Notes: generated by a model not told the origin, from the letters alone. DNA of 64,000 nucleotides from an uncultured Mycoplasmatota bacterium (GCA_900543825.1 UQSR01000005.1:11122-75121), one strand, 5' to 3'; shown: positions 11,536-63,124, numbered from the stretch's first letter. Numbers and translations are program-made.

Positions 11536-11541
11536 AATTAT

Positions 11542-12864: not shown

Positions 12865-12891
12865 TTTCTCACCCCCTTTTTATATTATTTT

Positions 12892-18121: not shown

Positions 18122-18125
18122 GTTA

Positions 18126-29103: not shown

Positions 29104-30397
29104 CTCCCCGAATAAAGTGCAAATTGTTTGCACCATCACTTCACAGTGATGAATTTCTGTTTCTTGGAAACTACACTTAGCTTCGTCCACAGACTTAAAT
29201 TCCGATAAGTGCTACCGTACTTTATTTTTACTTTAAAGAAATTTTGTTCGTTATTGACATTCATTATTGATACCTGGAATATACTTTCTTCATATATAAT
29301 TTTAGCCCTTCAAACATGATATTTATACTTGCATTTAAATCTCTATCTAATGTGTTTTTGCAACATTGGCATACATAGTCTCTCTCATTTAAGTTCTTGT
29401 ATTTTTTATCTATATTATCACAAACACTACAGGTTTGACTTGATGGATAGTAGGTATTTATTTTGAAAAAGTATTTACCTTTTTCTTTAGACTTGTATTC
29501 TAGTTGTTTTAGTATTTCTCTAAATGTTGCATCATTTATTTTTTTTGATAGATTTATGTTTTTGTCCATAATCATTTTTTTAATATTTAATGATTCGGTA
29601 ATTATTATATCATAATTATCGGTTATTTCTTTTGTTATTTTATGAATGTAGTATTTTCTGGCATTGGATAATTTGCTATAGAGTTTATTTAATCTTTTTA
29701 AATTTTTGTAATAGTTTTGACTTCCTTTATTCTTTTTGGATAATTTATAGTGTTCTCTTTTTATTTGTTCTTCGTATTTATTTATATATTTGTTATTATC
29801 ATACGATGTATTATCTGACATTGTTATTAGTTTCTTTATTCCTAAATCTATTCCTACTATTGTATTTGGTTTTCTTTTTGATGGTTCTGGCAATTCATAT
29901 AATATACTCACATAATATTTGCTATTTTTATCTTTCGATATTGTTACGTTTGTTATTTTGCCATTTATTTTGGTGATATTTCTATAGCCTCTTATTTTTA
30001 ATTCTTCTAATTCTGGTAATTTTATTGTTCTACTAATTAAATCTAATTCTATATTACAGTATTTATTGTAAATAGCTTTAATTGTATAACTATTTTTACC
30101 ATATTTGCTTCGATATTTTGGATTACTAATTCCACTGTTGAGATGTCTTTTATAATTATCTTGTAGATTGAATATTGTTTTCTTGATAAGCAATGGATTG
30201 GCTTCTAGTAAGAAAGGATATTCATATTTTAATTTATTTGTATAATCTTTAATACAAGAATAGGCGTTTATATATCCTTCGCTAATTATTTTTCTAAGAT
30301 AATAATTATATACAAATCTATTACATCCAAAAGTTTTATTTAGTTTTTGTTTTTGTGTGTCACTTGGATATATTCTAAATTTATATGCTTTATACAT
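29104..30397 (-). mobile_element. IS200/IS605-family tnpB-only element (IS1341-like); boundaries approximate
   Basis: Intact tnpB with a structured ~160-nt 3' region (hairpins GTGCAAA..TTTGCAC, CATCACT..AGTGATG, GTTTC..GAAAC), typical of an omega-RNA scaffold. No Y1 (HUH) tnpA is present. Confidence 0.4.
29264..30397 (-). CDS. tnpB: RNA-guided endonuclease TnpB (OrfB, IS200/IS605 family)
   Basis: MYKAYKFRIYPS...QKQKL..FGC.RFVYN N-terminus; split RuvC residues (IVGIDLG D, IIITESL E, DRDLNASINI D); C-terminal Zn finger CSVCDN...CQCCKN; 377 aa. Confidence 0.85.
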   Translation of the reverse strand: MYKAYKFRIYPSDTQKQKLNKTFGCNRFVYNYYLRKIISEGYINAYSCIKDYTNKLKYEYPFLLEANPLLIKKTIFNLQDNYKRHLNSGISNPKYRSKYGKNSYTIKAIYNKYCNIELDLISRTIKLPELEELKIRGYRNITKINGKITNVTISKDKNSKYYVSILYELPEPSKRKPNTIVGIDLGIKKLITMSDNTSYDNNKYINKYEEQIKREHYKLSKKNKGSQNYYKNLKRLNKLYSKLSNARKYYIHKITKEITDNYDIIITESLNIKKMIMDKNINLSKKINDATFREILKQLEYKSKEKGKYFFKINTYYPSSQTCSVCDNIDKKYKNLNERDYVCQCCKNTLDRDLNASINIMFEGLKLYMKKVYSRYQ

Positions 30398-38952: not shown

Positions 38953-39867
38953 CTAACTTATTACATAATCTCTAGTATATATTCTGTTATCGCTTGAATA
39001 TTCTATATAATAATGATTATCACGCCTAGATATAATAATACCTATTGTTTTATCTTGATTAATACTTTTAATATGTTTATCTATATAATTCATATATACT
39101 TCTATTTGTCCTATATGTTCTTTCTTTAGTTCACATACTTTTAATTCTATTACTATAAAACAATTATAAATATAATTAAATAATAATAAGTCTATATAAT
39201 TATAAGTATTACCTATTTTTATTTTGTATTCATTTTCTATAAAACTAAAGCCATCTCCAAGTTCTTTTAAAAACGATGGTATATCTTCGAGTATCAATCT
39301 TTGAAGCATCTTCTCAGAAATATTTTCTATATCATAATTATATTTATTCTTAATAACTATTGGATTCTTAATAAAATCACTTACGTTAACTTCTTCTTTA
39401 TTAATTAGTTTTAATTTAGCATTATCGTCTAATCTTTGATATTCTTTATTTTTAATTCTTTCTCTCAATTCTCTTACACTCAAATTATAACTTTCTATTA
39501 TAGATATATAATAATTAATTTCATTAATATCATTAAACTTTAGAATTTCTTTGTAATGGCTCCATGTTAATTGGTCCGACAGTGTAGGACTTTTTTCATA
39601 CAATATATAAAACATTCTCATATATTTAAGTGAAGTTATAGAATACTTTTTCCCCAAATCTTTTGTTAATCGCTCAGAGTATTCTTTAATTAAGCCATCA
39701 CCATATTTTGCCCTATTTTCACCACCTTGTGCTTCAATTAACAATCTACCAACTTCATAATAAGTACTAATCTCATTTCTATTCTTAGAATAATCTTTTA
39801 CTCTTTTATATACTTCATTATCTATTAATTTACTTTTAATCTCATTATAATAATTAATTTTATTCAC
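38953..39867 (-). CDS. DUF1016 (YhcG-like) protein with C-terminal PD-(D/E)XK nuclease fold
   Basis: N-terminal YYEVGRLLIEAQGGENRAKYGDGLIKEYSERL...MRMFY (DUF1016_N); C-terminal IDLLLF ... VIELK PD-(D/E)XK-like motifs. Confidence 0.6.
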   Translation of the reverse strand: MNKINYYNEIKSKLIDNEVYKRVKDYSKNRNEISTYYEVGRLLIEAQGGENRAKYGDGLIKEYSERLTKDLGKKYSITSLKYMRMFYILYEKSPTLSDQLTWSHYKEILKFNDINEINYYISIIESYNLSVRELRERIKNKEYQRLDDNAKLKLINKEEVNVSDFIKNPIVIKNKYNYDIENISEKMLQRLILEDIPSFLKELGDGFSFIENEYKIKIGNTYNYIDLLLFNYIYNCFIVIELKVCELKKEHIGQIEVYMNYIDKHIKSINQDKTIGIIISRRDNHYYIEYSSDNRIYTRDYVIS

Positions 39868-41911
39868 CTTCCTTCATAATTGCAGTACGAACTCTAACTT
39901 TACTTTTATTAATCTTGATATTAATACTTCCATCCAAATCAGTTCTATATATTTTTGAATTGTTTAAATTTTCTAATACTTCTTCGTTAGGATGGCCATA
40001 TATATTACCTTTCCCCAAAGATATAAGTGAAATTTTAGGAGTAATACAATCTATAAAATCTTTACTACTACTAGTCTTAGAACCATGATGTCCTACCTTA
40101 AAAAAAGTAATATCCGAAAGATTATATTTAGACATAATATAATCCTCAACATTACTAGAGGCATCCCCCATAAACAAAAACTTATATTTCAAATATTCAA
40201 AATAAATAACATTACTATTATCATTTTCATTATCAAATATCTTATCATTAAGAAAATATAAATATATACCATGAATATCAATTTTATCACCAAAAGTATC
40301 ATATCCAATGTCCTTATCCTCAAAAATATCAATAGCTTCTTCTTCAAATAACGATTTATCACCTCTATTAAAAATAACCATATCTACCCTAAAATTATCA
40401 GTAAGATTAATAAGACCACCAATATGATCCTTATCACCATGACTAATAATAACATAATCAAGTTTTCTAATCCCTCTGCTTTTCAAATACATTATAATAT
40501 TATTCTTCATAATAGAATACCCATCATCTTCCCCAGTATCAATAAGAATATTACCACCATTATTAGGAAAACTAACAAGATACGAATCACCCTCTCCAAC
40601 ATCAAACATAGTAATCTCTAAATTATTATTAAAATAAGGATAAATATAATGAATTAAAGTAACTAAAATAAACAAATATATAAACCTCTTATATCTATAA
40701 ATACCATAAATAATAACAAAATATAAAATAACTATAATAATACTAGGTTTGCAAAAAATAAATCTCATAAAAGAAATATCATTCAAAAAGAAAGATATAT
40801 CCTCTAAAATACTAGTAAAGAAAAACATAATACTATCACATATAGGAAAAAACAAAGTAATAATAGCAAGTGGAATCAAAATAACACTAACTATAGGTAC
40901 AATTAAAACATTAATAATAATACTAAAAACATTAACCTCATAAAAATAAAATACAGTAATAGGAAAAGATACCAAAAAAGATATAACAGAAGTATAAACT
41001 ACCTTAATAAAATAATTTTTATTTTTATATTTATCATAAAAAAGAATAAGAAAAAAACTAATTAAATAAGAATAAATAAAACCAATATCATAAATAATAA
41101 AAGGATTAATAAAAATAGCGATAACTAAAGTAAATAACATAATATCAATTTTATCAATTTCCAATTTAAAAAAATAATTAATACTACTAAGTATAAACAT
41201 AATACAGGCTCTAAGTAAAGAAGAAGTATATGAAAAAATCAAATAAAATATAAGAAAAATATCACTAATAAAATATTTAATACGTTTATTATAAGTAATC
41301 TTATCCAAATAAATATATAAAATACCAATAATAAGATTAATATGCATACCACTTATAGAAAACAAATGACTTATACCATTAATTCTATAACTTTCCTTAA
41401 TATCACTAGAAAGACTATTATCTCCAAATAATAAAGTCTTAATATAATTACCAGACTTAAATTTATTAACCCTATCATATAAAATATTTTTCAAAGTATA
41501 AAAATAATTACTATTATTTTCTATCTTATTAATACTACTAGCCTTAACTATATAAAATATCTTCCTATTATATAAATAATCTTTATAACTAAAAGAGTTA
41601 AATATAGTACTATCCATAGGAGTATATAACTCTCCTTTAACAAGAAGTTTATCACCATAAAGAAGTTTATCAAAAACCAAATTATTATAACTATAATTAA
41701 CAATTAATACCTCTTTAGCCTTAAGCGTAATACTAATCTTACCATCACTAACTTTATAATCAGTAACAATTCCCACAAAAGTATCATCGTCTTTTTCATA
41801 ACAAGATTCAAATTTATAATAACGCGTAAACAATATCGCTCCTATTAAAAAAATTAAAGCTAATAACTTAAATAAATATTTAAACTTTAATATACATCTT
41901 AATCTTTTCAA
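39860..41911 (-). CDS. comEC: DNA internalisation competence protein ComEC/Rec2
   Basis: 683 aa: N-terminal OB/DUF4131-like region, multi-TM competence domain, C-terminal metallo-beta-lactamase fold (ISHGDKDHIGG). Confidence 0.85.
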   Translation of the reverse strand: MKRLRCILKFKYLFKLLALIFLIGAILFTRYYKFESCYEKDDDTFVGIVTDYKVSDGKISITLKAKEVLIVNYSYNNLVFDKLLYGDKLLVKGELYTPMDSTIFNSFSYKDYLYNRKIFYIVKASSINKIENNSNYFYTLKNILYDRVNKFKSGNYIKTLLFGDNSLSSDIKESYRINGISHLFSISGMHINLIIGILYIYLDKITYNKRIKYFISDIFLIFYLIFSYTSSLLRACIMFILSSINYFFKLEIDKIDIMLFTLVIAIFINPFIIYDIGFIYSYLISFFLILFYDKYKNKNYFIKVVYTSVISFLVSFPITVFYFYEVNVFSIIINVLIVPIVSVILIPLAIITLFFPICDSIMFFFTSILEDISFFLNDISFMRFIFCKPSIIIVILYFVIIYGIYRYKRFIYLFILVTLIHYIYPYFNNNLEITMFDVGEGDSYLVSFPNNGGNILIDTGEDDGYSIMKNNIIMYLKSRGIRKLDYVIISHGDKDHIGGLINLTDNFRVDMVIFNRGDKSLFEEEAIDIFEDKDIGYDTFGDKIDIHGIYLYFLNDKIFDNENDNSNVIYFEYLKYKFLFMGDASSNVEDYIMSKYNLSDITFFKVGHHGSKTSSSKDFIDCITPKISLISLGKGNIYGHPNEEVLENLNNSKIYRTDLDGSINIKINKSKVRVRTAIMKEGE

Positions 41912-42527
41912 ACAAAGAATCCCCTATACCATCTACATTCTTAATATCATCTATAGAATTAAAATTACCATTCTTATCTCTATATTCAATAATAGCTTTA
42001 GCCTTACTTCTTCCAATACCTTTAATATCCATAAGTTCATCTATATTAGCAGTATTAATATTAACAAGTTCATCATCTTCATTATTATCACTAATACATG
42101 CATCATTACTAATATCAGGGCAATCACATACACATACCTCATTTTTATATTTCTCTAAAATTTCTTCATTAGAATAAATAATAATAGTCATTTCATCACT
42201 AACTACTTTAGCCAAATTAATCTTACTAGTATCAGCTCCATCAAGTAGTCCTCCAGCGGTTTCAATAACATCATTAACCCTAAAACTACTAGGAACCTCA
42301 TATACACCAGGATTAACCACCATCCCCTTAATATCCACTATTACAGTATTAGTATCATCTTTCATCTCTTCTATTATATCATCATTACTATTATTATCAC
42401 TATCATCTTTTTCTTTAAAAATATCTACCACATCATCACTCTTACTATAATTATTTTTATATAAAACAAAAATAATACCTCCAAGTATAAAAGAAATACC
42501 AAGTAAAATAAAAATTACCTTCTTCAA
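41880..42527 (-). CDS. comEA: Competence DNA-binding protein ComEA (membrane-anchored HhH)
   Basis: N-terminal TM, SLBB-like middle region, C-terminal tandem helix-hairpin-helix (NINTANIDELMDIKGIGRSKAKAIIEYRDKNGNFNSIDDIKNVDGIG). Confidence 0.8.
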   Translation of the reverse strand: MKKVIFILLGISFILGGIIFVLYKNNYSKSDDVVDIFKEKDDSDNNSNDDIIEEMKDDTNTVIVDIKGMVVNPGVYEVPSSFRVNDVIETAGGLLDGADTSKINLAKVVSDEMTIIIYSNEEILEKYKNEVCVCDCPDISNDACISDNNEDDELVNINTANIDELMDIKGIGRSKAKAIIEYRDKNGNFNSIDDIKNVDGIGDSLFEKIKMYIKV

Positions 42528-42679: not shown

Positions 42680-43981
42680 TTACATTAATTTATTTTTATT
42701 CTTAATTTTATGTCTATTATCCTTTTTCTTAATTAAAATTATAGAAAAAGTAATAATAGTAATAGCAAGTACCCCTATAGATATAAGTAAATATAGAAAA
42801 TAATTATCAGCCTTTTTCTTATATCCATTAACAACATCATTATTAAGTCTTTGTATAGTAGCTTCTTTTCTATCATAAGTATAAAGTCCTATCTTACCAG
42901 TAGTTTCATTTTGTGCATATATAAGATAGAAGTCACTATTGTTAAGTACATAACCATCTATCTTCTTACCATCATACTCAAATGTTTTCTTAACATAACC
43001 ATCAGGTATTTTATCCTTTGGCATATCAAGAACACTCAAATACAAATTACCAACCTTAATACCATTATACTTAGTATAAGTCTTCTTCTTTTCATCATAT
43101 ATATAATAAGCAGCATTACCACTTTCATCTTTAATACCAACAAGTACTACTTTAGTAACTTTGTTCCTATAACATAAAACATCATTATCATTAATTTTAA
43201 TAGTATCTTTTTCATAATTTTCCGGAGGATCAATAACACCCTCTTTTCTAATTATATTATATTTCTTCTTATCAATAGTAACCTCTATCGGATCAAGTTC
43301 TTTAACCGTTACATTAATAACATAAACCCTTTCATTACCATTTTCTGCCGTAACCTTAATTTCAATCTTATTAACACCTTCAGTTACACTAACTTCTCCA
43401 TCGCCCTTAACACTAGCAGAAGAATCAGCCTTCTCAGCTTTAATATTAACTTTTTCAGTACCATTAGGAACTTCTACACTATACTCTTTAGTTTCTTTAT
43501 CAAAAGAAGGCGAAATATCAAACCCATCAATAGCTAAAGATTTCAAATAATTATTCGAAGAATACTCACGAGTAGGCTTCTTAATAACAACAGGTTCCTT
43601 AACCGTAATAGAAATAGAACTATTATCTAAAGAATAACCCTTATCAACAGCAAGTTCTCTAAGAACAACATTAGAAGTTTTGCAAGTAACAGTCCCTGAA
43701 GAAGTAGGTTTAATAGTAAACGAAAAGCTCTTAGAAGTACTCTTAGTATCCATATCCTCAAAAGACATATCCCTACTAGCAGTAACACCAGAACCACTAC
43801 AATTAATAGAACCCTCAGTAGTATAAATACCACTGCCAGCACTTATAGTAGCAGTAATAGTCACACTATCACCCCTAGTAACAGAACTCTTATTAGCACT
43901 AACACTAACACTAGAAGCACTCACAGTAGAAAACAAAAACAAACCAAAAACAAAAACCATAAAAAATCTAATTTTCTTCAC
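42680..43981 (-). CDS. Membrane-anchored surface protein with cadherin-like beta-sandwich domain
   Basis: Signal peptide, Ser/Thr-rich Ig-like region, cadherin-like segment (NNYLKSLAIDGFDISPSFDKETKEYSVEVPNGTEKVNIKA...), and a C-terminal TM plus basic tail. Confidence 0.55.
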   Translation of the reverse strand: MKKIRFFMVFVFGLFLFSTVSASSVSVSANKSSVTRGDSVTITATISAGSGIYTTEGSINCSGSGVTASRDMSFEDMDTKSTSKSFSFTIKPTSSGTVTCKTSNVVLRELAVDKGYSLDNSSISITVKEPVVIKKPTREYSSNNYLKSLAIDGFDISPSFDKETKEYSVEVPNGTEKVNIKAEKADSSASVKGDGEVSVTEGVNKIEIKVTAENGNERVYVINVTVKELDPIEVTIDKKKYNIIRKEGVIDPPENYEKDTIKINDNDVLCYRNKVTKVVLVGIKDESGNAAYYIYDEKKKTYTKYNGIKVGNLYLSVLDMPKDKIPDGYVKKTFEYDGKKIDGYVLNNSDFYLIYAQNETTGKIGLYTYDRKEATIQRLNNDVVNGYKKKADNYFLYLLISIGVLAITIITFSIILIKKKDNRHKIKNKNKLM

Positions 43982-43993
43982 AAAAATAACCTC

Positions 43994-46516
43994 CTATTTA
44001 TTCAAATTAGTATATCCCTTAAGATGTCTCAAAATACCCAAACAATCATCCTTATCAATCTTACCATCTTTATTATTATCAGCAGCTATAGCATAATAAG
44101 ATTTCAAATCACCATAACCCTTAAGATGTCTCAAAATACCCAAGCAATCATCCTTATCAATCTTACCATCACCATTAACATCACCATAGATAACAATACC
44201 AAAACTCTCTTCTTCCTTACCATTACCAATAACTACAACGTCTCCAGTAACAAAAGTACCACTAGTCTTATTATTACCTTTATTATCCTTTATATTAACA
44301 CTAGCATAATTACTAACTTTCTTAATATTATCAATTAAACTACTAATAGAAGTACCCTCATCAATACCAAAAATATAATCATTATTATATTTAATACCAG
44401 AACTATTCAAAATAGTATCAATTGATGGAATATCATCAGGATTATCTATCTCATCACGTTTAACATTAATAACATATTCTCTACTATTACCACTCTCAGA
44501 AGTAACAATAACACTTATCTTCTTCTCATTACTATCAATACTAATATCACCAGTACCACTAATAGAAGATGAACTAGCAATCTTACTAGCACTAATATTA
44601 ACACTACCAGTACCAGCAGGTACACTAACATCATAAGTATAAGTATCATAACTAAATCCACTAACAGTAGTCCCATTAACCTTCAAATCATTTAAATAAT
44701 TATTAGGATTACCAATTCTAGGAGCAGTAACAGCATAATTAGGCATATCCTTATATACAGGAATAGTAAATTCTAAATCCTTATCAAAATAATCCGAAAT
44801 AATATTAACATAAGACTTATAAACCTTATCAGTCTCTTGAGCAATAACCGCTAAATTCTGCATATACTGATGTGTATAATTACCATTATTCGTAGATACA
44901 TCAAACTTCTCATAATATAAAGTATCCTGATTAACACCACAATATTCATCATAAATAAACTTACTACCACCATATATACCACGATATGGAGTATTCCATC
45001 CATTTTCAACAGCATATCTCATACCATTTAAAATCTTATTAGTACCATAAACCTTAATATTAAAGAAATTATAATAATTAGAATAATTAGTACCATCTAA
45101 AGTAAAACTACCACCACTTCTAGGATCAGAAGTACCAATACCAGATATTTCCTGTTTAATTCTCGCTGCTATATGAAAAGAACTAATACCAATATCTTTA
45201 GTAGCATTAAAAACATCAGAATAAGCATTACCACTATAACCAGAATAAACACTATTCCAATAACTATTATTACCCATTATCTTTTTTACACCATCTTCAG
45301 TATGATTACTATTATAATTAAGAAGTTCATAGGCAATAATATATTTAATATTCAAATAATTTCTCGGATCCAAATAATAAGCTACAGCCTCTGAAGAAGC
45401 ATCATACCATCCATTCTCAGTAGCATAAGAAGTAAACTTATTGCTCAAAATATCATAACTATTTATACCCATCGAATAATAATTCTCATTAAATGCACTA
45501 CCCTGTAATAAATTACGACCATAAGCATTCTCTCCACTTACAACCCCATCAAAAGTAAGAGGTATCGTTTCACTTATAAATTTCCAATTAGGATGCCTTG
45601 CATGAAGTTCTGCTAAATAAGGCAAATAGCTATCAGGAAAACCACCTTTTCTTAAAAAATTATAATAATCATCCAAACTATTATTCTTATAATAATTAAT
45701 AGCCATATCAGAAAGCTTAGTAGTATTAACATAATAACCACATACATAACCACTATTACCCTTACTATCTGTTATATTATAATAATAAGGACAAATACCA
45801 CTAGATTCAGAAGAAGAATTAATAGTTATAACTTCACCACAACTAACCTTTTTACCAGTAGTACTACCGCCAGGAGTCTTTCTAAGAGATAAGTCACCAG
45901 TATCCTCAAAACAACTAATAGTTCCATCTCCACTAGGTTTAGAATTATAATTATCTTTTTTATAAATATTATCTCCACTACCCCTACCAATATCTTTAAC
46001 TGGTGTAGAACTATTAACATCACCTATATATTTACCACATGCATATCCAGTATTACCATTATGTCTAACTTTATACCAATTATCACACTTAGTATTACTA
46101 GCAACATTCTTCTCTAATATTTCCATCTCTTCATTACAATCTAATTTATCAACCTTATTAGTTTTATTAATATCACTCCATATATTTAAAGGATCAGTAT
46201 TCTCAATGCATAAAGCCTTACCCTTATAAGTAGTATTAGAATCTTTAAGTTTAATATAATCACCACATGCATAACCAGTAGTAATATCATATCTAACCTT
46301 ATACCAAGTCCTGCAATTACTAGTAGATCCAGCATTAGTATCAAGAACCTCTACATCACTACCACATGGAATACCCTTTCCTATTAAAGAACCACCAGCA
46401 CTATTTCTTATATTAATAGGTTCATTATCATCAGGACAATAAGCAGTTCCATTAGCAGCATATCCTACATTTATAAATAAAACAAATAATACCAAAGTAA
46501 TAATTATCTTCTTCAT
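43994..46516 (-). CDS. Secreted multidomain cell-wall hydrolase candidate: 3x SH3b-like repeats + GH73-like glucosaminidase region + cadherin-like domain + C-terminal dockerin
   Basis: Three WYKV...GY(A/V)CG repeats and an ENGWNTPYRG / YTHQYMQNLAVIAQ glucosaminidase-like segment. Also a cadherin-like NNYLNDLKVNGTT... segment and a duplicated Ca-binding dockerin pair (GDVNGDGKIDKDDCLGILRHLKGY twice). Confidence 0.5.
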   Translation of the reverse strand: MKKIIITLVLFVLFINVGYAANGTAYCPDDNEPINIRNSAGGSLIGKGIPCGSDVEVLDTNAGSTSNCRTWYKVRYDITTGYACGDYIKLKDSNTTYKGKALCIENTDPLNIWSDINKTNKVDKLDCNEEMEILEKNVASNTKCDNWYKVRHNGNTGYACGKYIGDVNSSTPVKDIGRGSGDNIYKKDNYNSKPSGDGTISCFEDTGDLSLRKTPGGSTTGKKVSCGEVITINSSSESSGICPYYYNITDSKGNSGYVCGYYVNTTKLSDMAINYYKNNSLDDYYNFLRKGGFPDSYLPYLAELHARHPNWKFISETIPLTFDGVVSGENAYGRNLLQGSAFNENYYSMGINSYDILSNKFTSYATENGWYDASSEAVAYYLDPRNYLNIKYIIAYELLNYNSNHTEDGVKKIMGNNSYWNSVYSGYSGNAYSDVFNATKDIGISSFHIAARIKQEISGIGTSDPRSGGSFTLDGTNYSNYYNFFNIKVYGTNKILNGMRYAVENGWNTPYRGIYGGSKFIYDEYCGVNQDTLYYEKFDVSTNNGNYTHQYMQNLAVIAQETDKVYKSYVNIISDYFDKDLEFTIPVYKDMPNYAVTAPRIGNPNNYLNDLKVNGTTVSGFSYDTYTYDVSVPAGTGSVNISASKIASSSSISGTGDISIDSNEKKISVIVTSESGNSREYVINVKRDEIDNPDDIPSIDTILNSSGIKYNNDYIFGIDEGTSISSLIDNIKKVSNYASVNIKDNKGNNKTSGTFVTGDVVVIGNGKEEESFGIVIYGDVNGDGKIDKDDCLGILRHLKGYGDLKSYYAIAADNNKDGKIDKDDCLGILRHLKGYTNLNK

Positions 46517-46599
46517 ATCTTCTACCTCATACTAATTATAACATTTTTAGACAATTTTTGCTATACAAATAAGTAAAATTATAAAATAATACATAATAA

Positions 46600-46635
46600 A
46601 TGTAAAAAAAGAAATAACAATATACATTATTTCTT
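46600..46635 (-). terminator. Rho-independent terminator after the 225-aa gene
   Basis: AAGAAATAA-CAATATACA-TTATTTCTT hairpin; the minus strand continues with TTTTTACAT. Confidence 0.5.
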
Positions 46636-46647
46636 TTAAAAGTAAAT

Positions 46648-47325
46648 TTATTTATAATTATCAAATAATGATAAATCACTACTAGGTATAGTTATCATTT
46701 CTTTAACATTTTCAGGTGGTCTATATTCATTACCCGCTTCTATATATTCATCACCAGAATAATAAGTTCTAACAAGCCAATCATTTTCTAATTTATAGTA
46801 AGTATAATGCTGATATCCCATATGTGCAAAAAATATCACTAGTTGACCATCATTAGATAAATAAATATTACCATGGCCACATCCAAAAATGCCAACATTT
46901 ACAATATCATCAGCATATTTAAGATTTGGATTATCAGTATAAGTATAAACAGATATTTCTTTAGTAGCCTCACTATCACCACTAACAATAAATAACTCTG
47001 GAATACCATCCTTGTTCATATCATACAAATAATAATTAGAATCATTTCTATTTTTTAATATTTTTTTATAATTACTCATTACATCAGATATATTTACAGA
47101 AGTTTTATTATCTTCCTTACCAGTATTATCATTGGTTTGCTCATCATTACCGCCAATATTTTCATTATCATTATTATTTTCATTTTTGTCAGTAGTATCA
47201 CCTTTTTTATTTTCACTAAATACTTTATCATAGACAACATATCCACCTAAACAAATCACCAAAACAAATAATATAATAGCTAAAATAATTAAAAACTTAT
47301 TTTTCTTTTCCATACAATCCTCCAT
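46648..47325 (-). CDS. Membrane-anchored/secreted hypothetical protein with acidic Asn/Asp-rich linker
   Basis: N-terminal TM (FLIILAIILFVLVICLGGYVVY), low-complexity linker and a ~130-aa C-terminal globular region. Confidence 0.45.
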   Translation of the reverse strand: MEDCMEKKNKFLIILAIILFVLVICLGGYVVYDKVFSENKKGDTTDKNENNNDNENIGGNDEQTNDNTGKEDNKTSVNISDVMSNYKKILKNRNDSNYYLYDMNKDGIPELFIVSGDSEATKEISVYTYTDNPNLKYADDIVNVGIFGCGHGNIYLSNDGQLVIFFAHMGYQHYTYYKLENDWLVRTYYSGDEYIEAGNEYRPPENVKEMITIPSSDLSLFDNYK

Positions 47326-47400
47326 ATATAATATATTTTATCGTCATATATAATAAAAGTAAATATTATTTATAAATTTTACAAATAAATCATACATAAG

Positions 47401-47430
47401 TGTAAAAAGAATCTATCAAAAGATAGATTC
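47401..47430 (-). terminator. Rho-independent terminator after the 444-aa surface-protein gene
   Basis: GAATCTATC-AAAA-GATAGATTC hairpin; the minus strand continues with TTTTTACAC. Confidence 0.55.
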
Positions 47431-47435
47431 CAAAA

Positions 47436-48770
47436 TTATTCCTCTATAATGGCGGTTTTTTTATAAAAGAAATACATTCCAACTCCAAAAGAAATAACTA
47501 AAATCATACATATAACAACATATATAGTATTTCCTGTTTCAGGTGGCATAACATCATTATCCTTATTTTTTTCACCTACAGGTGCATTACCTTCAGCATC
47601 TTTTCTAACTATTTTAAAAGTATAAATCCGATCTTTCTCATTATCAGCCTTCACTATAACTTTCAAAATATTTTCCCCAACATTAATATTTGCAAAAGGA
47701 GTTGCATTATAAACTAAACGACCTGTTTTATCAGTTTTCCAAATAAGTTCACCATCTAAGTAGCCATCATGTCCCCCAAGTTCATTATCCTTTACTTTAA
47801 TATTATTGTTTTCCTCCATTGCTTTCAAAATATCAACATCATTAAAAAGCATGACCATTTTCATATCATTATCCAAATCACCACTAACAGCGGAATCAAT
47901 TAAACAAAGATAATCATCTCTATCAGCATTATCTGAACACTCAGCAAATTTAGTAACTTTATTATCAACAATAATTAAATAATCAGTCTTATTCTTATCA
48001 AAACCATAATCATAACCTAAGAAAACAAACTTTGTTAAATAGTTGTCCCCTTTTCCAGTAGGCTTTTCAACAACAGTTTCACCAGGTTTCTTAATATTAA
48101 TAATATAACTCTTAATCAAATTTCTATTTTCTGCTTTTACAGTAATTTTAAATGTATTAGTTCCAGGTTTTAGCGTCTTAATACCTGTACCAGTAACTTC
48201 TGCATCAGAATCATTAGGGGTTGCCTTAATCTCAACACTATTAAGAGATTCAGGAGCCTCAATATTGTATTCATTTTTAAATCTATCAAATTCAAAAGTT
48301 AAACCAGTAACTTCTAAATTTTTTAAACTATTATCAACAGACTGAACATAAACATTTTTACTAACATCTATACCTCTAACTTCTGTTCCATCACTTTTAG
48401 TAGCCACAATATCACTAATTGTAATAGTTTTATTTTTTTTAGGCTCATCATTAATACTAGACATAACAGTAATTTCACCAATTTTATTATTACCAGAAGA
48501 AATACCATTAATAGTTAATATTTGATCATCACCAATTTCAATAGTTTTTGAGTCATTACTAGTAAAACTACATTTTGAAGTACTACTATCAAGAACCTTC
48601 ATTTTAAGACTACTAACATCAAAGTCACTATTAACCATAAAACCACATTTAATAATTCCAGAAAATGTAATTTTCTCCGGACAAGACAAATCAATATTAA
48701 TAGTATCAGCACAAACAAATATAGGTATAAATAATACCATAGCAAATATATAATATATAATTTTTTTCAT
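47436..48770 (-). CDS. Surface protein with cadherin-like domain and C-terminal (S/P)PxTG-type sorting signal (PPETG)
   Basis: Signal peptide, cadherin-like segment (NSLKNLEVTGLTFEFDRFKNEYNIEAPESLNSVEIKATPNDSDAEV). C-terminus: PPETGN, then a hydrophobic segment, then YKKTAIIEE. Confidence 0.55.
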   Translation of the reverse strand: MKKIIYYIFAMVLFIPIFVCADTINIDLSCPEKITFSGIIKCGFMVNSDFDVSSLKMKVLDSSTSKCSFTSNDSKTIEIGDDQILTINGISSGNNKIGEITVMSSINDEPKKNKTITISDIVATKSDGTEVRGIDVSKNVYVQSVDNSLKNLEVTGLTFEFDRFKNEYNIEAPESLNSVEIKATPNDSDAEVTGTGIKTLKPGTNTFKITVKAENRNLIKSYIINIKKPGETVVEKPTGKGDNYLTKFVFLGYDYGFDKNKTDYLIIVDNKVTKFAECSDNADRDDYLCLIDSAVSGDLDNDMKMVMLFNDVDILKAMEENNNIKVKDNELGGHDGYLDGELIWKTDKTGRLVYNATPFANINVGENILKVIVKADNEKDRIYTFKIVRKDAEGNAPVGEKNKDNDVMPPETGNTIYVVICMILVISFGVGMYFFYKKTAIIEE

Positions 48771-48870: not shown

Positions 48871-49314
48871 AAAACTATATGCATTACTAATATCCCTATT
48901 AATCTGTGAAAAGAAATCCCTCTTCTTACCAAATTCCAACTCATAAATCTCAGTCTTAAAAGAATATATTTCCTTATTATCTTTATCAAATAATGTAATC
49001 TTTAATCTAAGATCTTTATTAGTATTAGAATTTAAATTCATAACATATCCATCAAATTCACTCCTATTAGAAGAACATATAACATACATATCAGTAAAAA
49101 CATAATTATCATATACATACTTTTCCATATTCATATTATCAAGTAAATTAATTTCTTTTGTAGTACCAATACTTTCAACATATTCAGTATGACAATCAGT
49201 ACAATCATTATCTTTTTTATTAATAAGTAATATCATACCAATTATCAAAACACTAATTATAATTAATAAAATTATTAATACCCTTTTCTTATTCACTAAT
49301 ATCACCTCTAACAA
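48853..49314 (-). CDS. Small bitopic membrane protein translationally coupled to the 558-aa modular pilin
   Basis: N-terminal TM (VLIILLIIISVLIIGMILLI), ~110-aa Cys-containing ectodomain; start overlaps the pilin stop by 7 nt. Confidence 0.45.
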   Translation of the reverse strand: MLEVILVNKKRVLIILLIIISVLIIGMILLINKKDNDCTDCHTEYVESIGTTKEINLLDNMNMEKYVYDNYVFTDMYVICSSNRSEFDGYVMNLNSNTNKDLRLKITLFDKDNKEIYSFKTEIYELEFGKKRDFFSQINRDISNAYSFKVEEY

Positions 49315-50984
49315 GAATTTTTAGTAGTTTCATCAAAACTATTATTATCACCACTAATATTTTGTAATGAACTTCTAGTAGTAATAGCACAATCATCATA
49401 TATCTTCCATCCATTAGGAATTCCATACGGATAGTCAGGACAAACAAATTTCTCACCAATCTTAGCAACATGACTATTATAATAATCTTTCGACATACCA
49501 CAAACACTACAATAAACAGCAAATCCATAATTATGATAATTGCCACAAGTAAACTGTGTTGATTGCCCTATAGCAAATTTTCTAATTCCCCTTGCTTTCC
49601 ATACATGCGTATGTTCTTGAGTTATACAATTTCTTAACGTATCCCTATCAACAGTTCCATATTCAGAGCTACCATCAAATTCCGTATAATTACAAGTAGT
49701 TTCACTACATGTAGTAATATAATATTTACCATTACTATTGCATCTATAATCATTAATAGAATCTATAAAGCAAGAACTATTATTTAAAGTTGTTCTATTT
49801 ATCTTTCCAACAGTATATTCAAAATAAGATTTATCGTTTTCCTTATATGCCACCGCAGTATATTCACACATATCATCAGGATCACAATAAGTAATAAAAT
49901 AAGAATAAATACCTTGACATCTCCAATCATTAATAGTTGCATCAATATTCTTCCAATTAACTTTAAGAGTTACAGTACAATCACCATTTGAAGCATCACA
50001 GAACTCACTAGCTTTATATGCCTTATCCTGATCAAAAGTTTTACCAACAGTACTACATCCACTACTAGAATCACATATCCAAGTCTCACTATCATATGCA
50101 AAATAACCATCTTTTGTAATATATAAATATTCAGGATTATTATAATTAGCAAGACCAGCACTATCTAAAGAGCCTCCATAATTTATAGTATGGAATACCT
50201 CACTATCATTCCAAGAACAATTAATAACATTATTACTAGTACTACAAGTACCATTAGTAGTACTACCCCTAACACTACCACCATTAGCATCAAGCTTAAT
50301 ATATACCTTATTAATCCTCCACTGAGCATATAAAGTCAAATCAGCATTACTATTATAAGAAGCACCAGCCTTATAAGTAGTTCCACTACCATCCTTTTTA
50401 GTATTCCAATTAACAAAAGTATAACCAGTTCTTGTAGGTTTACTACTAGATAAACTAATACTTTTATTTTCTATTTTACTCTGATCACCAGGAGCATTAC
50501 TACCACCATTAGCATTATAGCTAATAGTATATAAATTATTTTCTTCTGTTTCCTTATTAACACAAGCCTTATAATCATTACTATTAACATCAGCATTATC
50601 ACCCAATATAACAGGTTCACTCTTAACTAAAGAAACCTTATCCTTTTTAATAGAAATATAATTACTCTTATTAATATTATCCGGAAGTTTAGCATTCTTC
50701 TTAATAATACCCTTATTAATAAGTTCCTCAATAGTTATACAATAATATTTATAATTACCACTACCAGGATCAATCCATAAACTATCATCAGCTTCATCAG
50801 CATATAAACTAGCACTCTTCTTAATACTAGTTTCGCTAATTAAAGAACCCTTTTCTTTAGACTTATTAACCAAATTAACAATACCATAAGTACCAATACC
50901 AAGTATTATCGCTACAATAGCAATAACACCAAGTAACTCTATTAAAGTAAAACCCTTATTATTAATCCTTTTCATATATAACAC
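49308..50984 (-). CDS. Modular type IV pilin-like protein (prepilin N-terminal cleavage/methylation domain + Flg_new repeat + Cys-rich module), 558 aa
   Basis: Class-III leader MKRINNKGFTLIELLGVIAIVAIILGIGTYGIV (G|FTLIE), pilin-like head to ~aa 120. One Listeria-Bacteroides/Flg_new repeat (YTISYNANGG...GYTFVNWNTKKDGSGTTY...LTLYAQW), then a ~235-aa Cys-rich module shared with the 1124-aa paralogue. Confidence 0.7.
   Translation of the reverse strand: MLYMKRINNKGFTLIELLGVIAIVAIILGIGTYGIVNLVNKSKEKGSLISETSIKKSASLYADEADDSLWIDPGSGNYKYYCITIEELINKGIIKKNAKLPDNINKSNYISIKKDKVSLVKSEPVILGDNADVNSNDYKACVNKETEENNLYTISYNANGGSNAPGDQSKIENKSISLSSSKPTRTGYTFVNWNTKKDGSGTTYKAGASYNSNADLTLYAQWRINKVYIKLDANGGSVRGSTTNGTCSTSNNVINCSWNDSEVFHTINYGGSLDSAGLANYNNPEYLYITKDGYFAYDSETWICDSSSGCSTVGKTFDQDKAYKASEFCDASNGDCTVTLKVNWKNIDATINDWRCQGIYSYFITYCDPDDMCEYTAVAYKENDKSYFEYTVGKINRTTLNNSSCFIDSINDYRCNSNGKYYITTCSETTCNYTEFDGSSEYGTVDRDTLRNCITQEHTHVWKARGIRKFAIGQSTQFTCGNYHNYGFAVYCSVCGMSKDYYNSHVAKIGEKFVCPDYPYGIPNGWKIYDDCAITTRSSLQNISGDNNSFDETTKNSC
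49600..50320. repeat. ~0.7-kb direct repeat copy A (about 94% identical to 51930-52640) encoding the Cys-rich module
   Basis: The protein segments (R/K)xNKVYIKLDANGGSVRGSTT...TLKVNWK..I..TINDWRC...DRDTL are near-identical. Embedded antisense ORFs 49970..50161 and 52269..52460 differ at only ~6 of 63 codons. Boundaries approximate. Confidence 0.6.
50680..50984. repeat. ~0.3-kb direct repeat (near-identical to 54560-54870) encoding the shared pilin leader/head
   Basis: The first ~100 aa of the 558- and 1124-aa proteins are almost identical, including long identical nucleotide runs (e.g. acccttattaataagttcctcaatagttatacaataatatttataattaccactaccagg). Confidence 0.6.
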
Positions 50985-51070
50985 CTATCCTAAGACTAAT
51001 TATAATATATTTTAAAAAAAAAGAAAAGACCATTAACAAAATAAATGTTAATAGTCCTATATAATAAGTA

Positions 51071-51493
51071 TCATCCTAATGGTTTTTCAAAATAATATAC
51101 TGTACTGCTAAATTCCCCCGAATCCTCTTTTAAAAGCATCATATCATTTTCATAAGAAACCTTAAAAACCCCAGAAAAATAATCAGAATTATTAATAGTT
51201 AATATATCATCTTTTTTTGTATAATTATTGGTGTAACATTTATCATAACAAACATCTACTTTATCATCATAAAATGTAAGGGTAAAAGGAGCCATATCAT
51301 AAGGAATATCTATCTTATTACCATTATTATCATAAGTTTCATATTTTGTATAACTCCAAGTTTCATAGTTTTTATCATCTAATTTAGTTCCTTGTTTTTT
51401 AACAAAAACAAAAATCAATAAGCCAATCATTACCAATAAAATAATAAAAATACATAAATATAACACTTTAATTTTTTTATTCATATCAACCAT
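51071..51493 (-). CDS. Small bitopic membrane protein translationally coupled to the 1124-aa modular pilin
   Basis: N-terminal TM (VLYLCIFIILLVMIGLLIFVFV), ~105-aa ectodomain with 4 Cys; its start is 3 nt after the pilin stop. Confidence 0.45.
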   Translation of the reverse strand: MVDMNKKIKVLYLCIFIILLVMIGLLIFVFVKKQGTKLDDKNYETWSYTKYETYDNNGNKIDIPYDMAPFTLTFYDDKVDVCYDKCYTNNYTKKDDILTINNSDYFSGVFKVSYENDMMLLKEDSGEFSSTVYYFEKPLG

Positions 51494-51495
51494 TT

Positions 51496-54400
51496 CTAAT
51501 AAAATCCTCCAGTCTCAACAGAACCACTAGGGCAAGAACTACGACAGAAGTTACCTATGCAATCTCCTTTACCATTATAGCCTGCATAAGAACCACCTAA
51601 GGAACTAATCTTACTACGACACTGAGCATCAGAGCCAGCAGAAGTAATACATTTAACAATTTTTTTACAGCCACCACTTGTTCCGCCACCACTAGAGCCA
51701 ACGCAACTACTAGGTTTACTTGAAGACAAAGCACTTCCAACCGAGTAACATCCATCATTTGTTACATAATACCATCCGTTAGTAGCATTTACATTAACAG
51801 TTAAAGCAGCACCGCAACTATAGGCCACAGCAATACCATATGAAGTTCCAGCACCATAACGACAGTTTACTCCATTTGATGAAGTAACATACATTGTCTT
51901 AGTATCCGGAACACACTCTTTCAACGTATCTCTATCAACAATATAAAGATTATTAGGGTTCATAGTATTACCATTAAGTTCAGTATATATACATGTAGTT
52001 ACACTACATGTAGTAATTTTATATTTACCATTACTATTACATCTATAATCATCAATATTATCAACAAAACATGAACTAAGATTTAAATTATTCCTATTTA
52101 TCTTACCATAAACACGTTCCGAATAAGATGCACCATTTTCTTTATATGCTCTTGCTGTATATTCACACATATCATCAGAATCACAATAAGTAATAAAGTA
52201 AGAATATTTATCATGACATCTCCAATCATTAATAGTAGTATCAATTTTCTTCCAATTAACTTTAAGAGTTACAGTACAATCTCCACCTGAAGCATCACAG
52301 AACTCACTAGCCTTATATGCCTTATCCTGATCAAAAGTTTTACCAACAGTACTACATCCACTACTAGAATCACATATCCAAGCTTCACTAGCATATGCAA
52401 AATAACCATCTTTTGTAATATATAAATAATCAGGATTATTATAATTAGCAAGACCAGCACTATCTAAAGAATCACCATAATCAATAGTATGAAATAATTC
52501 TTTAGGACTATTCCAACTACAACCGATAAGATTATTATTAGTCCTACAACTACCATAAGTAGTACTACCCCTAACACTACCACCATTAGCATCAAGTTTA
52601 ATATATACTTTATTCTTTTTCCATCTAGCATATAATACAAGTTTATTTTCCGCTATACCGTATTGACCATCAGCATAGTTCCAAGTACCACTCCAACCTG
52701 TCCATCCATAGCCATCATCTGTTCCATTACTTTTTGTTGTCCAACCAGCAAATGTATAACCATCACGTGTAAAGCCATTATTCTTAATAGTAACATTAGT
52801 ACCAAATTCAGCATTATTACTTTCCATAGTACCAGTTCCACCATTTGCATTATAATTAATTCTATAAACTACACCCTTCCAACCAGCATATATCGTTTTA
52901 TTACCTTCCGTATTATATATATCTGAAGATATATACTGAGATATTCTTCTACCTTCCTTTAAACCATATTCAAAGTAATGTTTATATAAACGATTAGCAT
53001 CATAACCAAAAGCATTCTTTAAATCACTATAAGTGTCAGCATAATAATTAAGAGGACTATTTTTATAATTATTATCAAACCAACCTACAAAAGCATAACC
53101 ACGTTTACTAGGTGTACATAAAGTACCATATTCATCACCATAATTCATTGATTTACTAGTGCACCCACTACCACCATTATTATCATAAAGCAAAGTATAA
53201 TTCTTAGTTTTCCAATTAACACCAAGTACTACAGTACAACTCTTATCCTTTGCATCACAAAAATCATCAGAACTATATGCCTCATATTGGCTATATACTT
53301 TTCCACTAGTAGTACATCCGCTTAAACAAATCCATTCCTTATTCTTAGTAACAATAGCATCATTTCTAGTAATATATAAATAATCTTTATTATTATAATT
53401 AGCAAGCCCATTACTATTCATCTTTTCACCATAATTAATAGTATGGAAAATATTTTTGCCATTTCTACTAATAATACCAGAAGAATCAGTAGTATATGTC
53501 CCACCTTTTGAAGTTTCTTTAGTTACACTACCACCATTAGCATTAAGTTTAATATTAACTCTACTTTTAATAATAGGATAATAAGTATTACTACCATCAA
53601 TATCTTTAGAAGTATTTGCCTTCCATATACTACTACTAGCACTACTATCAGTATTCCAGCCTACTATTGTATAACCATCTTTACTAATACTAGGAGATTT
53701 AATACTACATTTCTTATCAATATCATTCAAACAAATATTAGTAATATCATTAGTACCATTATTAATCTTATCAGCATTACCCTTCTTAAATACTGTTCGG
53801 TACAAATTAAATTTCTTATCATTATCTTTATAATTACCAGTTTTATCCATTATTCTAGCAGTAATATCACCATTCTTAATTTCATTATCCTTATAAGTAA
53901 TCTTAACTTCATTTTCATTAACCTTATACCACTTATCTTTAGTAATATTACTAGTACTACCACTACAAGTAAATTTATTATCACTACCAAGCGTACATTC
54001 ACTAACATTCTTATCACTAGTACCATCGACATTAGACTTAAAATAATGCTTACCTTGATCACTCCTAATATTATCATCCTTATAAGTAATCGTAATAGTA
54101 TCATCCTTATAACTAAACGTAGGATCCACAAAATCAGCAAGAGGATAAGTTTTAGTTTCAGAGCAAACTTTAGATCCCTTCTCTGTAGACATACATACTC
54201 TAACATAATAATCATTATTATTTTTATCGTTTGTAAGATTAACTATATTACATACATTTTCATCTTTATCAATAGAAATTACATTTTCCCCATCTGCTAT
54301 AGAAGATGAACCATTTTTATACTGACACCATTTTTCCTTAATTGAACTTTCTGTTTCGGCATTTTTAAACTCTATAACAAAACCATCAGTATATGATTTA

Positions 54401-60618: not shown

Positions 60619-61473
60619 TTATAATCTTTCCAAAACTCCATTTTCCAAATCGTCTATATTATATATTGTTTCAAGTACATTAAAAGTTTCTTCAAGATTA
60701 TGTTTAGCATTATTCCAACCAGTTCCATCAGTAAACCAAATAAATGTTACACCTGTAACTTTTTTAGCTTCTTCCGCTAGCATTTTATAGCTTCTAGCAG
60801 TTTCATTTAGTTTAGAACCACCACTTGTATAAAAATTTGTTTCTATAACATATACCATATTTTCTTTCTTTATAACAAAATCAAATCTTTTAGCGGATAC
60901 ATTATTTCCCGACATAGCACTTAAATCCAAATTCCACTTTCTTTCTATATCCTTCAAATACATTTCCTTAAAATATGTATCATTCTTTTTATACCCAGCT
61001 TTTACAATATATTCTTCTACTAAATTTTCCATTAAATGACCACCACGATTTTTTCTACCATTTGAATCCAAACCAACCTCTATTCCTAGAACATAATCAT
61101 ACAAATTATTTATAATATGATTTTGAAGCAAATCAAAAAGGCCACACTCTCTCATAAATCTAATATAGTCATCAACCGAGTACACTAACTTCTTAAAATT
61201 GAATAAATACTCATTTATCTCATCTTTTATAAAAATTTCACTAGAACGAACCGCAAGTAACAAAGGAATACATTCCAATGTTTCAGGATACCTTATTATT
61301 ATATTTTGAAAATCATCTTCAATTTTTTCACTACCAATCAAAGAATTTAAAATATTTAATTCCAATTTTACCTTATCAACATTTTTATATATCTTATCAA
61401 AATCAACATAATAAGCATAATTTGATATACTTGATTTAAAACTGCTAAACCACTCATTAAAATCTCTATTCAT
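60619..61473 (-). CDS. dpnB: Type II restriction endonuclease, DpnII/MboI family (GATC)
   Basis: 284 aa; conserved blocks LNILNSLIGSE, GLFDLLQNH, GRKNRGGHLMEN, KRFDFVIK and SKLNETARSYKM match DpnII endonuclease (DpnB). Confidence 0.8.
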   Translation of the reverse strand: MNRDFNEWFSSFKSSISNYAYYVDFDKIYKNVDKVKLELNILNSLIGSEKIEDDFQNIIIRYPETLECIPLLLAVRSSEIFIKDEINEYLFNFKKLVYSVDDYIRFMRECGLFDLLQNHIINNLYDYVLGIEVGLDSNGRKNRGGHLMENLVEEYIVKAGYKKNDTYFKEMYLKDIERKWNLDLSAMSGNNVSAKRFDFVIKKENMVYVIETNFYTSGGSKLNETARSYKMLAEEAKKVTGVTFIWFTDGTGWNNAKHNLEETFNVLETIYNIDDLENGVLERL

Positions 61474-62249
61474 TATTTATCATTCTCCAATCTTCTAATA
61501 GTCAAGTCCAAATACCCTTTTTCTCTTTCTATACCAATATATTTTCTATTTAATCTGCTTGCAACTATCCCAGTTGTACCACTACCATTAAAAGGATCTA
61601 AAATCAAATCACCTTCATCTGTTGATGCCATAATGACTTTTTCAAGTAATTCTATCGGTTTCTGCGTAGGATGTTTCCCACATTTCTTCTCACTAGGCTT
61701 AGTAAGTGATGTTTCCCATACGTCTTTCATTTGCTTATTATTATTTAATTTTTTCATAGCATCATAATTAAACTTATATTTAATATTCTTTATATCTTTT
61801 TTTGCCCACAAAATAGTCTCAGTAGAATGCACAAATGCACGACAGCTTATATTAGGAGGTGGATTTAATTTTCTCCAAGTAATATTATTTATTATCTTAA
61901 ACCCGTTCTCTTCAAGTGCCATACCTATTGAATAAATATTATGCATAGTACCACTTATCCATATAGTACCATTATCCTTTAACACTCTTTTACATAATTT
62001 AATCCATTCTTTATTAAATTTATGTTTCTCTTTAAAATCAATAGCCTTATCCCATTCTCCTTTGTTAACACTTACCATCTTACCTCCACTGCAGGTTATA
62101 CCATTATCAGATAGAAAATAAGGAGGATCTGCAAAAATCATATCAATACTCTCTGGTTTAATACTTTTAAGCACTTCCAAAGAATCACCATATATAAGTT
62201 TAAAATCACATTTATCATAATAATAAGCAAACTTTTTCATAAGTATCAC
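61473..62249 (-). CDS. dpnA: DpnA-like N6-adenine DNA methyltransferase (ssDNA-active second MTase of DpnII cassettes)
   Basis: 258 aa; MIFADPPYFLSDNG (DPPY), WISGTMHNIYSVGMALE, KHPTQKPIELLEKVI and DPFNGSGTTG (FxGxG) align along their length with DpnA. Confidence 0.8.
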   Translation of the reverse strand: MILMKKFAYYYDKCDFKLIYGDSLEVLKSIKPESIDMIFADPPYFLSDNGITCSGGKMVSVNKGEWDKAIDFKEKHKFNKEWIKLCKRVLKDNGTIWISGTMHNIYSIGMALEENGFKIINNITWRKLNPPPNISCRAFVHSTETILWAKKDIKNIKYKFNYDAMKKLNNNKQMKDVWETSLTKPSEKKCGKHPTQKPIELLEKVIMASTDEGDLILDPFNGSGTTGIVASRLNRKYIGIEREKGYLDLTIRRLENDK

Positions 62250-62263
62250 ATCCTTGTAACATG

Positions 62264-63124
62264 TTATATTAAGTTATCAAAACCTCTCTTGTTCTCAAAA
62301 TTTGTAATTATAACTTCTTCTACTTTTCCTCTTTTTTTACCATTAGCATTAATATTCCTCTTAGCCTCTATAACATGAATATTAAAATCACTATAAAGTT
62401 CATTAATAAGCTTAGTATTATGATTAGAAAGCATTACAAAACATCCCCTATCAGATAACTCTCTAAATACTTTTGCTAGCCTTCTCTGTTCACCTTTTCC
62501 AAAACCATCTTCTGTATAACTATTAAAAGTAGAAGTATCAGAATCATATGGTGGATCAAAATATATAAAATCACCTCTTTTAGCAGTACTTACAGCATCT
62601 TCAAAATCAATAGATAAAATCTTAATATCATTATAATTTAAAAAACCACAAATTATACCCAAGTTCTGCCCCTCATAAGTATTAACTTTAGCTTTTTTAC
62701 CAAAAGGAACATTAAATTCCCCTTTACTATTAACCCTATATAATCCATTAAAACAAGCCTTATTTAAATAAATAGTTCTAGCGGCTCTTTTATAATCAGC
62801 AATTTTATTAAACTTTTTCTTATCCCTATCTATATTTCTAATTTCATAATAATAATCTTCAGAATGATACATCTCATGACGATTTAATTCTCTACACATA
62901 GCTTCAAACTTTTTCTCATCTTTAATACAATTATATACATTCATAAGTTCATAATTAGAATCATTAATTACTGCCCTTTTAGGAGATAACTCAAATAATA
63001 ACGCACCACCACCCACAAAAGGTTCATAATAAGTATCAAACTCATCAGGAACATATTCCATAAGTTTATTCATTATTTGTCTCTTACCACCAGCCCACTT
63101 TACAAATGGTCTACCTTTAATCAT
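62264..63124 (-). CDS. dpnM: Dam-family GATC N6-adenine DNA methyltransferase (DpnM-like)
   Basis: 286 aa; FVKWAGGKRQ, EPFVGGGALLFEL (FxGxG), NGLYRVNSKGEFNVPFG and DFIYFDPPY match DpnM/Dam. Confidence 0.85.
   Translation of the reverse strand: MIKGRPFVKWAGGKRQIMNKLMEYVPDEFDTYYEPFVGGGALLFELSPKRAVINDSNYELMNVYNCIKDEKKFEAMCRELNRHEMYHSEDYYYEIRNIDRDKKKFNKIADYKRAARTIYLNKACFNGLYRVNSKGEFNVPFGKKAKVNTYEGQNLGIICGFLNYNDIKILSIDFEDAVSTAKRGDFIYFDPPYDSDTSTFNSYTEDGFGKGEQRRLAKVFRELSDRGCFVMLSNHNTKLINELYSDFNIHVIEAKRNINANGKKRGKVEEVIITNFENKRGFDNLI

Follow-up and report, generated by a model that had tools for sequence, protein, structure and literature searches.

The question raised by this locus is what two large cysteine-rich proteins, encoded in the genome of an uncultured Mycoplasmatota bacterium, carry behind their pilin-like N-termini. 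The proteins, here called A and B, lie in a stretch of 64,000 nucleotides (GCA_900543825.1 UQSR01000005.1:11122-75121; G+C ~27%), which is referred to as the window. A first-pass annotation of this DNA described a novel Cys-rich module of ~235 amino acids (aa) in three copies across A and B. The analysis reported here favors a composite nature for this unit: with a probability of about 0.72, it consists of an expanded Flg_new core followed by two Cys mini-barrels, and serves modular type IV pilins as a stalk or adhesion cassette stapled by disulfides.

The repetition between A and B is real and far beyond chance. The two are paralogous open reading frames (ORFs) whose first ~150 residues are 80% identical by BLASTP. 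Further matches join residues 151-502 of A to 668-1035 of B (60% identity, E 9e-144) and residues 103-351 of A to 308-560 of B (35%, E 1e-43), and the motifs by which the module had been recognized are indeed present in both proteins. At the DNA level, direct repeats with 83-90% identity connect the module copies. What is repeated, however, is not one 235-aa block. The written-out motif span, from RxNKVYIKL to TVTLKVNWK, covers only ~123 aa; this core occurs three times in the window (copies A, B1, and B2). A length of ~235 aa is reached only with an extension of ~110 aa, which in the window follows the A and B2 cores alone, so the full unit exists twice (A aa 223-456 and B aa 751-989) and its extension has no third copy. 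The diverged core B1 falls outside the interval 49600-52640 that had been assigned to all copies. In place of about 10 conserved Cys, the count is 14 per 235-aa unit, of which only 4 are common to the three cores.

Gut Firmicutes, Bacteroidota, and archaea very commonly display Flg_new repeats on their surfaces, and the function of these repeats is poorly understood. Both A and B score above the Pfam Flg_new cutoff (63.3 bits for protein A) through canonical repeats that neighbor the cores. The relationship of the core itself to this family is evidenced by profile-profile comparison of 60 core sequences (alignment A2) with 52 short repeats from the same proteins (A3), all 52 of which match Pfam Flg_new and serve as control. 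A local hhalign alignment of 42 C-terminal columns has 95% probability and an E-value of 4e-8, and once the alignment is made global or relaxed it takes in core columns 8-119 and 73 of 73 Flg_new columns (E 6e-9). The core is thus homologous to bona fide Flg_new along the whole repeat, and the degenerate “ANGGS” start earlier noted as Flg_new-like is a true likeness which is not limited to the first strand. Structurally, the core and Flg_new (PF09479, TIGR02543; prototype InlB B-repeat, PDB 2Y5P and 7PV9) agree in strand order and in the positions of their signatures, namely, beta1 with an NGG turn, a YG strand, a GY..W strand, and a terminal (L/V)Y.NW strand, and the core is extracellular and in tandem with canonical copies of the same proteins.

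The core differs from Flg_new in size and in Cys content. The core measures ~123 aa against ~70 aa, outside the ~65-75 residues expected of the family, owing to three insertions: a beta-hairpin of ~23 aa after the NGG turn, a conserved GLxNYNN loop of about 9 residues between the YG strand (strand 2) and the GY strand (strand 3), and an FCDASxGDC loop ahead of the final strand. One to three conserved Cys pairs are also peculiar to the core, as the Flg_new consensus built here has no such feature. The archetypal Flg_new loop EWNTKxDGSGxSY is retained in many family members, and the window copies carry W-I-C-x2-5-G-C in its place. The AlphaFold2 (AF2) model of the core (predicted local distance difference test, pLDDT, 95.8; predicted template modeling score, pTM, 0.88) has the beta-grasp-like fold described for the InlB B repeat (PMC8900821). 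From these comparisons we conclude that the core is, in all likelihood, an insertion-expanded descendant of the Flg_new/Listeria-Bacteroides repeat which current models miss, and not a new fold. In B aa 558-668 (52867-53199, minus strand), a canonical Flg_new repeat is split after its “GW” strand by an insertion of ~55 aa containing LYKHYFEYGLKEGRR; it represents another case of segment insertion into the Flg_new scaffold in this lineage.

The extension is itself a duplication. Its two window copies are 69% identical, contain 8 Cys each, and consist of two tandem units of ~50 aa with four conserved Cys per unit, following the consensus INDYRC-x-YYITTC-x3-5-C-x-YT..NG...G.V.R..L..C. Alignment of unit 1 with unit 2 by hhalign yields 98.7% probability (E 3e-16). 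In the AF2 model, obtained from a 14-sequence alignment (pLDDT 89.2, pTM 0.71), each half contains four strands and a short helix, and the prediction for each unit is a small SH3-like barrel of four strands. The fold match to SH3-like small beta-barrels (KOW, Tudor, SH3, and bacterial SH3b) is generic and does not establish homology: neither sequences nor profiles relate the units to Pfam SH3 families or to the SH3_3-like domains of the locus, and they differ from such barrels by their four conserved Cys. Searches of the extension against Pfam and PDB sequences returned no match, and hhalign of the units with Flg_new, the core, and local SH3_3-like segments stayed below 1% probability in each case. 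In most proteins the core occurs without an extension, and the B1 copy in the window likewise has none. Where units exist they lie downstream of the last core copy (24 of 24 unit-bearing proteins), directly after it in nearly all. A homologue search with the extension alignment found 6 proteins only and missed known full-length members; it is therefore uninformative on distribution.

The core belongs to a sizable family, whose numbers derive from core-only and unit-only hidden Markov models (HMMs) built locally. When the 235-aa module of A is the only query, a word-indexed search finds just six relatives; many more come from a profile search. The first profile, A1, took in the unrelated pilin N-terminus of P0006, and matches such as P0054, P0064, and P0083 cover only that part; the raw count of 951 from this search is not used as the family size. 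With near-identical A orthologues left out, 258 full-length core copies are found in 129 proteins, from one to six per protein and interleaved with canonical Flg_new. The element that precedes a core copy is canonical Flg_new in 89 cases, another core in 99, and something else in 101. The size classes are discrete, since within the same proteins core copies span 110-135 aa and canonical Flg_new repeats 60-80 aa. The family consensus reads NKVKIKYNVNGGTL ... HTINYGESLSSSGLANYNNSSYINITKTGYSAKSGKEWNTKSDGSGKTYDQSTVYKASDFCDASKGDCTVTLYVNWK, and its most conserved family-specific element is GLxNYNN, with G55, L56, and N61 invariant or nearly so. Prepilin-type N-termini are recognized by motif in about 63-70 of 132 core-bearing proteins.

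The survey of other genomes that had been proposed for the module was carried out on one genome per species, with an 8-sequence subset of the core alignment as query. It recovered 41 core loci. All come from metagenome-assembled genomes (MAGs) of human (Hadza), rabbit, and ruminant guts, with none from a cultured organism, and the closest is a locus of an uncultured Bacilli MAG with 89% identity. The loci are labelled Bacilli, Bacillales, Tenericutes, Mycoplasma, Firmicutes CAG:321, Erysipelotrichaceae, or Muribaculaceae; the last label looks doubtful because the G+C content of all 41 is 23-34%. Unlike Flg_new, the core family is so far confined to uncultured low-GC gut Bacilli MAGs. Its absence from curated libraries is probably explained by the lack of a cultured carrier.

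In the mechanism that we propose, the core and its two units would be joined to an N-terminal type IV pilin module and would serve outside the cell as a rigid stalk or adhesion segment cross-linked by oxidation. After prepilin cleavage, A and B would either be presented at or on a type IV filament, possibly at its tip, or stay anchored by the alpha-1 helix; the cassette would hold out a distal end that binds ligand and might contribute to it. Several results weigh against this reading. The three window cores have no match in Pfam even at E<=10 and none in NCBIfam (TIGR02543), and no core copy reaches the gathering score of PF09479; sub-threshold Pfam Flg_new matches appear in 10 of 60 core members, with a best E-value of 0.021. 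A profile search of PDB sequences with the core is also empty, so that the failure of the first-pass annotation to recognize a named domain was justified, and Foldseek of the core against PDB structures returns nothing significant, the best match being InlB at E 0.99. The 64-kb window contains no prepilin peptidase or pilus assembly gene. About 40 of the 132 core-bearing proteins start with ordinary signal peptides or N-terminal anchors (the remainder are fragments), which indicates that the module is not pilin-specific. Finally, the Cys clusters could in principle bind metal, as considered below.

Among the alternatives, the one that survives best regards the module as an inert stalk without a binding role and places the payloads in the C-terminal tails, A aa 457-558 and B aa 990-1124. 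It is possible, if on balance unlikely. The literature on fibrillar adhesins counts Flg_new among stalk domains (PMC9210967), and the core behaves as a tandem repeat of variable copy number, which supports a structural role. Proteins continue for a median of 218 residues beyond their last core copy. Over 40 near-identical orthologues of A from gut metagenomes, the proportion of variable sites per region is roughly even (11% to 18%), without a clear hotspot that would stand out as a contact surface. The idea that repetition with divergence marks the module as the functional payload is weak: the core acts as a tandem repeat, in one to six copies, also in secreted proteins that are not pilins, and the tails, which match no Pfam family and are distal to the module, are at least as good candidates. 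These tails may be tip or effector parts. On the other hand, a pure spacer would not be expected to keep GLxNYNN as its most conserved element. By alignment this element occupies the beta2-beta3 loop, which with strand beta2 makes up the ligand groove proposed for the InlB B repeat (PMC8900821), and this argues for more than a spacer; likewise, the fixed order of one core and then two units suggests a functional supradomain. A stalk or adhesion cassette is our preferred description. The stronger claim, that in an uncultured low-GC lineage of gut Bacilli the cassette would be a ligand-binding head of modular type IV pilins not described before, with the invariant GLxNYNN loop, inserted where InlB has its proposed groove, as putative site and the mini-barrels as a new family, is tentative and rather doubtful.

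As regards the pilin part, the view of A and B as pilin-like was sound. Both begin with a class III signal (MKRINNKG/FTLIELL in A and MKNKINNKG/FTLIELL in B), that is, a short polar leader ending in Gly, F+1, E+5, and a hydrophobic alpha-1N segment. Pfam N_methyl gives 28.9 bits for A and 25.1 for B (cutoff 21.2), and TIGR02532 gives 24.7 bits for A, above its cutoff of 16.3, and 15.1 for B, just below. A modular type IV pilin is defined as a pilin module carrying grafted C-terminal modules, and the vWA-bearing PilB and lectin-bearing PilC of Streptococcus sanguinis are examples (Raynaud et al. 2021, PMC8179133). A and B resemble these proteins in having a monoderm host and are likely minor or tip-located subunits. 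They differ in that the graft is a long array (Flg_new, expanded Flg_new, Cys mini-barrels, and unmatched tails) instead of one recognizable effector domain and in that machinery genes are unlinked.

It may be asked whether A and B enter pili at all, or whether the prepilin-type N-terminus is only a membrane anchor or export signal for surface display. We regard this as fairly unlikely, with points on both sides. Assembly genes are not adjacent, and the neighbors are other surface proteins (cadherin-like, dockerin, and SH3_3). In addition, B is large in comparison with the modular pilins cited in PMC8179133, where PilB has 50.5 kDa and a case of 860 residues is called the most extreme for added domains. 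Conversely, the G/FTLIE signal is canonical, modular minor pilins are documented (PMC8179133), and the window encodes a small prepilin of 130 aa which is a candidate major pilin. In the related MAG loci L017 and L033, moreover, a T2SSE ATPase gene adjoins the module-bearing gene, and L017 also has a small pilin gene nearby. Pilus incorporation of A and B is the option that we retain, as an inference. Directly downstream of the surface-protein cluster that follows A, comEA (SLBB + HHH_3) and comEC (Competence + Lactamase_B) occupy 39860-42527 on the minus strand, and a link of the big pilins to DNA uptake is possible.

The chemistry of the Cys residues was approached by scoring their co-occurrence over 273 distinct aligned core copies (positions in A numbering). 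C329 and C336 are both present in 251 of the 273 and never occur singly (phi 1.0), and an alternative pair, 303/316, behaves in the same manner in 23 copies (phi 1.0). C304 with a partner about five residues downstream (C304-C310 in A) is present in about half of the family (phi 0.70 for 304/309). C247 and C256, which bracket the inserted hairpin, are seen as a pair in the window lineage only: both are present in 8 copies including A and B2, C256 is alone in 5 more, and C247 never occurs without C256 (phi 0.78). Most core copies contain 2 or 4 Cys. Gain and loss in pairs fits disulfides, and to judge from this pattern the core is most likely stapled by one to three Cys pairs. The disulfide-rich extracellular fold that had been suggested for the module is in keeping with these data. 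Seven Cys-rich repeats of the Ephrin_rec_like/NCD3G/TNFR-like type, mostly known from eukaryotes, were observed in a module-bearing protein of 1947 aa in the rabbit-gut MAG locus L017 (4372-10215, plus strand). These repeats and the four Cys of the 130-aa prepilin suggest that the lineage uses Cys-rich extracellular modules readily.

It is improbable that the Cys clusters bind a metal such as Zn instead, so that the module would be a metal-stabilized or metal-dependent binding domain. In favor of metal, extracellular disulfides cannot be taken for granted in the gut anaerobes that make these proteins, and C-x5-C and C-x6-C in the core, or the 4 Cys of each extension unit, could in principle form Cys4 sites. 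Yet 86 core copies possess C329/C336 as their sole pair, the changes occur by pairs and not by quartets, no His residues are conserved, and the lineage has both the classically disulfide-rich repeats of L017 and a small pilin with 4 Cys. Very improbable is the remaining view, in which the whole 235-aa unit is a single new extracellular domain unrelated to known families: the empty Pfam, NCBIfam, and PDB sequence searches for core and extension and the nonsignificant Foldseek result would fit it, but the full-repeat homology of the core to Flg_new, the many cores without extension (B1 included), and the internal duplication of the extension largely refute it for the core and divide the unit into three domains, the largest in a known lineage, so that novelty holds as regards named families but not for the core.

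Table 1: Location and make-up of proteins A and B, their segments, and a small prepilin in the window.
Feature	Residues	Coordinates	Strand	Remarks
Protein A	558 aa	49308..50984	-	From ORF list; gene callers begin at Met4 (555 aa). Order: prepilin leader + pilin module, Flg_new, core, 2 Cys units, unmatched Cys-rich tail
A, canonical Flg_new repeat	152-222	50319..50531	-	Pfam PF09479, E 2e-17, full-length; directly upstream of core
A, core	223-346	49947..50318	-	6 Cys; predicted expanded Flg_new-type beta-grasp
A, Cys unit 1	349-407	49764..49940	-	Local HMM; AF2
A, Cys unit 2	408-456	49617..49763	-	Local HMM; AF2
A, C-terminal tail	457-558 (102 aa)	49311..49616	-	8 Cys; distal to module; conserved in P0002-P0004
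Protein B	1124 aa	51496..54870	-	From ORF list. Order: prepilin leader + pilin module, unmatched region, Flg_new, core B1, Flg_new x2, core B2, 2 Cys units, SH3_3-like + Gly/Cys-rich tail
B, core B1	435-556	53203..53568	-	4 Cys; diverged, without extension; local HMM E 1e-62; 49% identical to A core; translation checked
B, two canonical Flg_new repeats between B1 and B2		52621..53199	-	Local HMM; Pfam Flg_new E 3e-11 on aa 558-668
B, core B2	751-875	52246..52620	-	6 Cys; 85% identical to A core
B, extension	unit 1, 878-936; unit 2, 937-989	51904..52239	-	Local HMM
B, C-terminal tail	990-1124 (135 aa)	51499-51903	-	Weak SH3_3-like match (E 0.057), then Gly/Cys-rich end
Small prepilin	130 aa	19199-19591	-	MNKKG/FTLIELL; four Cys; beside spoIIGA, far from A and B

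When the genes are read as they are transcribed, priA is followed by B, a 140-aa transmembrane (TM) protein, A, a 153-aa TM protein, three cadherin-like/SH3_3/dockerin surface proteins, comEA, and comEC, and this order is kept in several human gut metagenomes. A repeated two-gene cassette of pilin and small TM protein was considered and rejected because the TM proteins after each pilin gene have no detectable homology. A connection with mobile elements was likewise discarded, as tblastn of the 235-aa unit against phage and plasmid collections gave no match. P0002 had the appearance of a biological B-to-A recombinant, which would imply repeat-mediated variation; its scaffold, L046, has a 100-N gap (7483-7582) in the repeat region just upstream of the junction, and the chimera is probably an assembly artefact produced by collapse across the duplicated module.

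The surface-protein cluster at 42680-48770 (minus strand) includes two cadherin-like proteins of 433 and 444 aa with one common domain at 39% identity. It also encodes a TM protein of 225 aa and a larger protein (840 aa) that combines SH3_3, cadherin-like, and dockerin/EF-hand domains. A second surface system is encoded at 9744-15115 (minus strand), where a sortase (12892-13524) stands beside a SpaA/thioester-domain pilin (13511-15115) and is accompanied by a DUF285/leucine-rich repeat protein (9744-11345, minus strand). A SpoIIGA protease and an adjacent sigma factor at 17441-18866 (minus strand) indicate a sporulation-capable Firmicute, despite the labels “Tenericutes” or “Mycoplasma” of related MAGs. 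The window further contains an IS605-family OrfB/TnpB transposon gene with a Cas12f-like TNB domain (29264-30397, minus strand). Three ORFs of 284, 258, and 286 aa lie side by side at 60619-63124 (minus strand). The L046 orthologue of the first is called a DpnII-family restriction enzyme and the other two look DNA methyltransferase-like by eye, so a restriction-modification system is probable.

These results do not open a new class of system. They define an enlarged, Cys-stapled Flg_new subfamily and a companion mini-barrel, neither of which is detected by current family libraries, and they extend the catalogue of modular type IV pilins in monoderms. The GLxNYNN loop represents a concrete candidate site for ligand-binding tests, and with new profile models of the two elements, large surface proteins of uncultured gut Bacilli, hundreds in number, would be better annotated.

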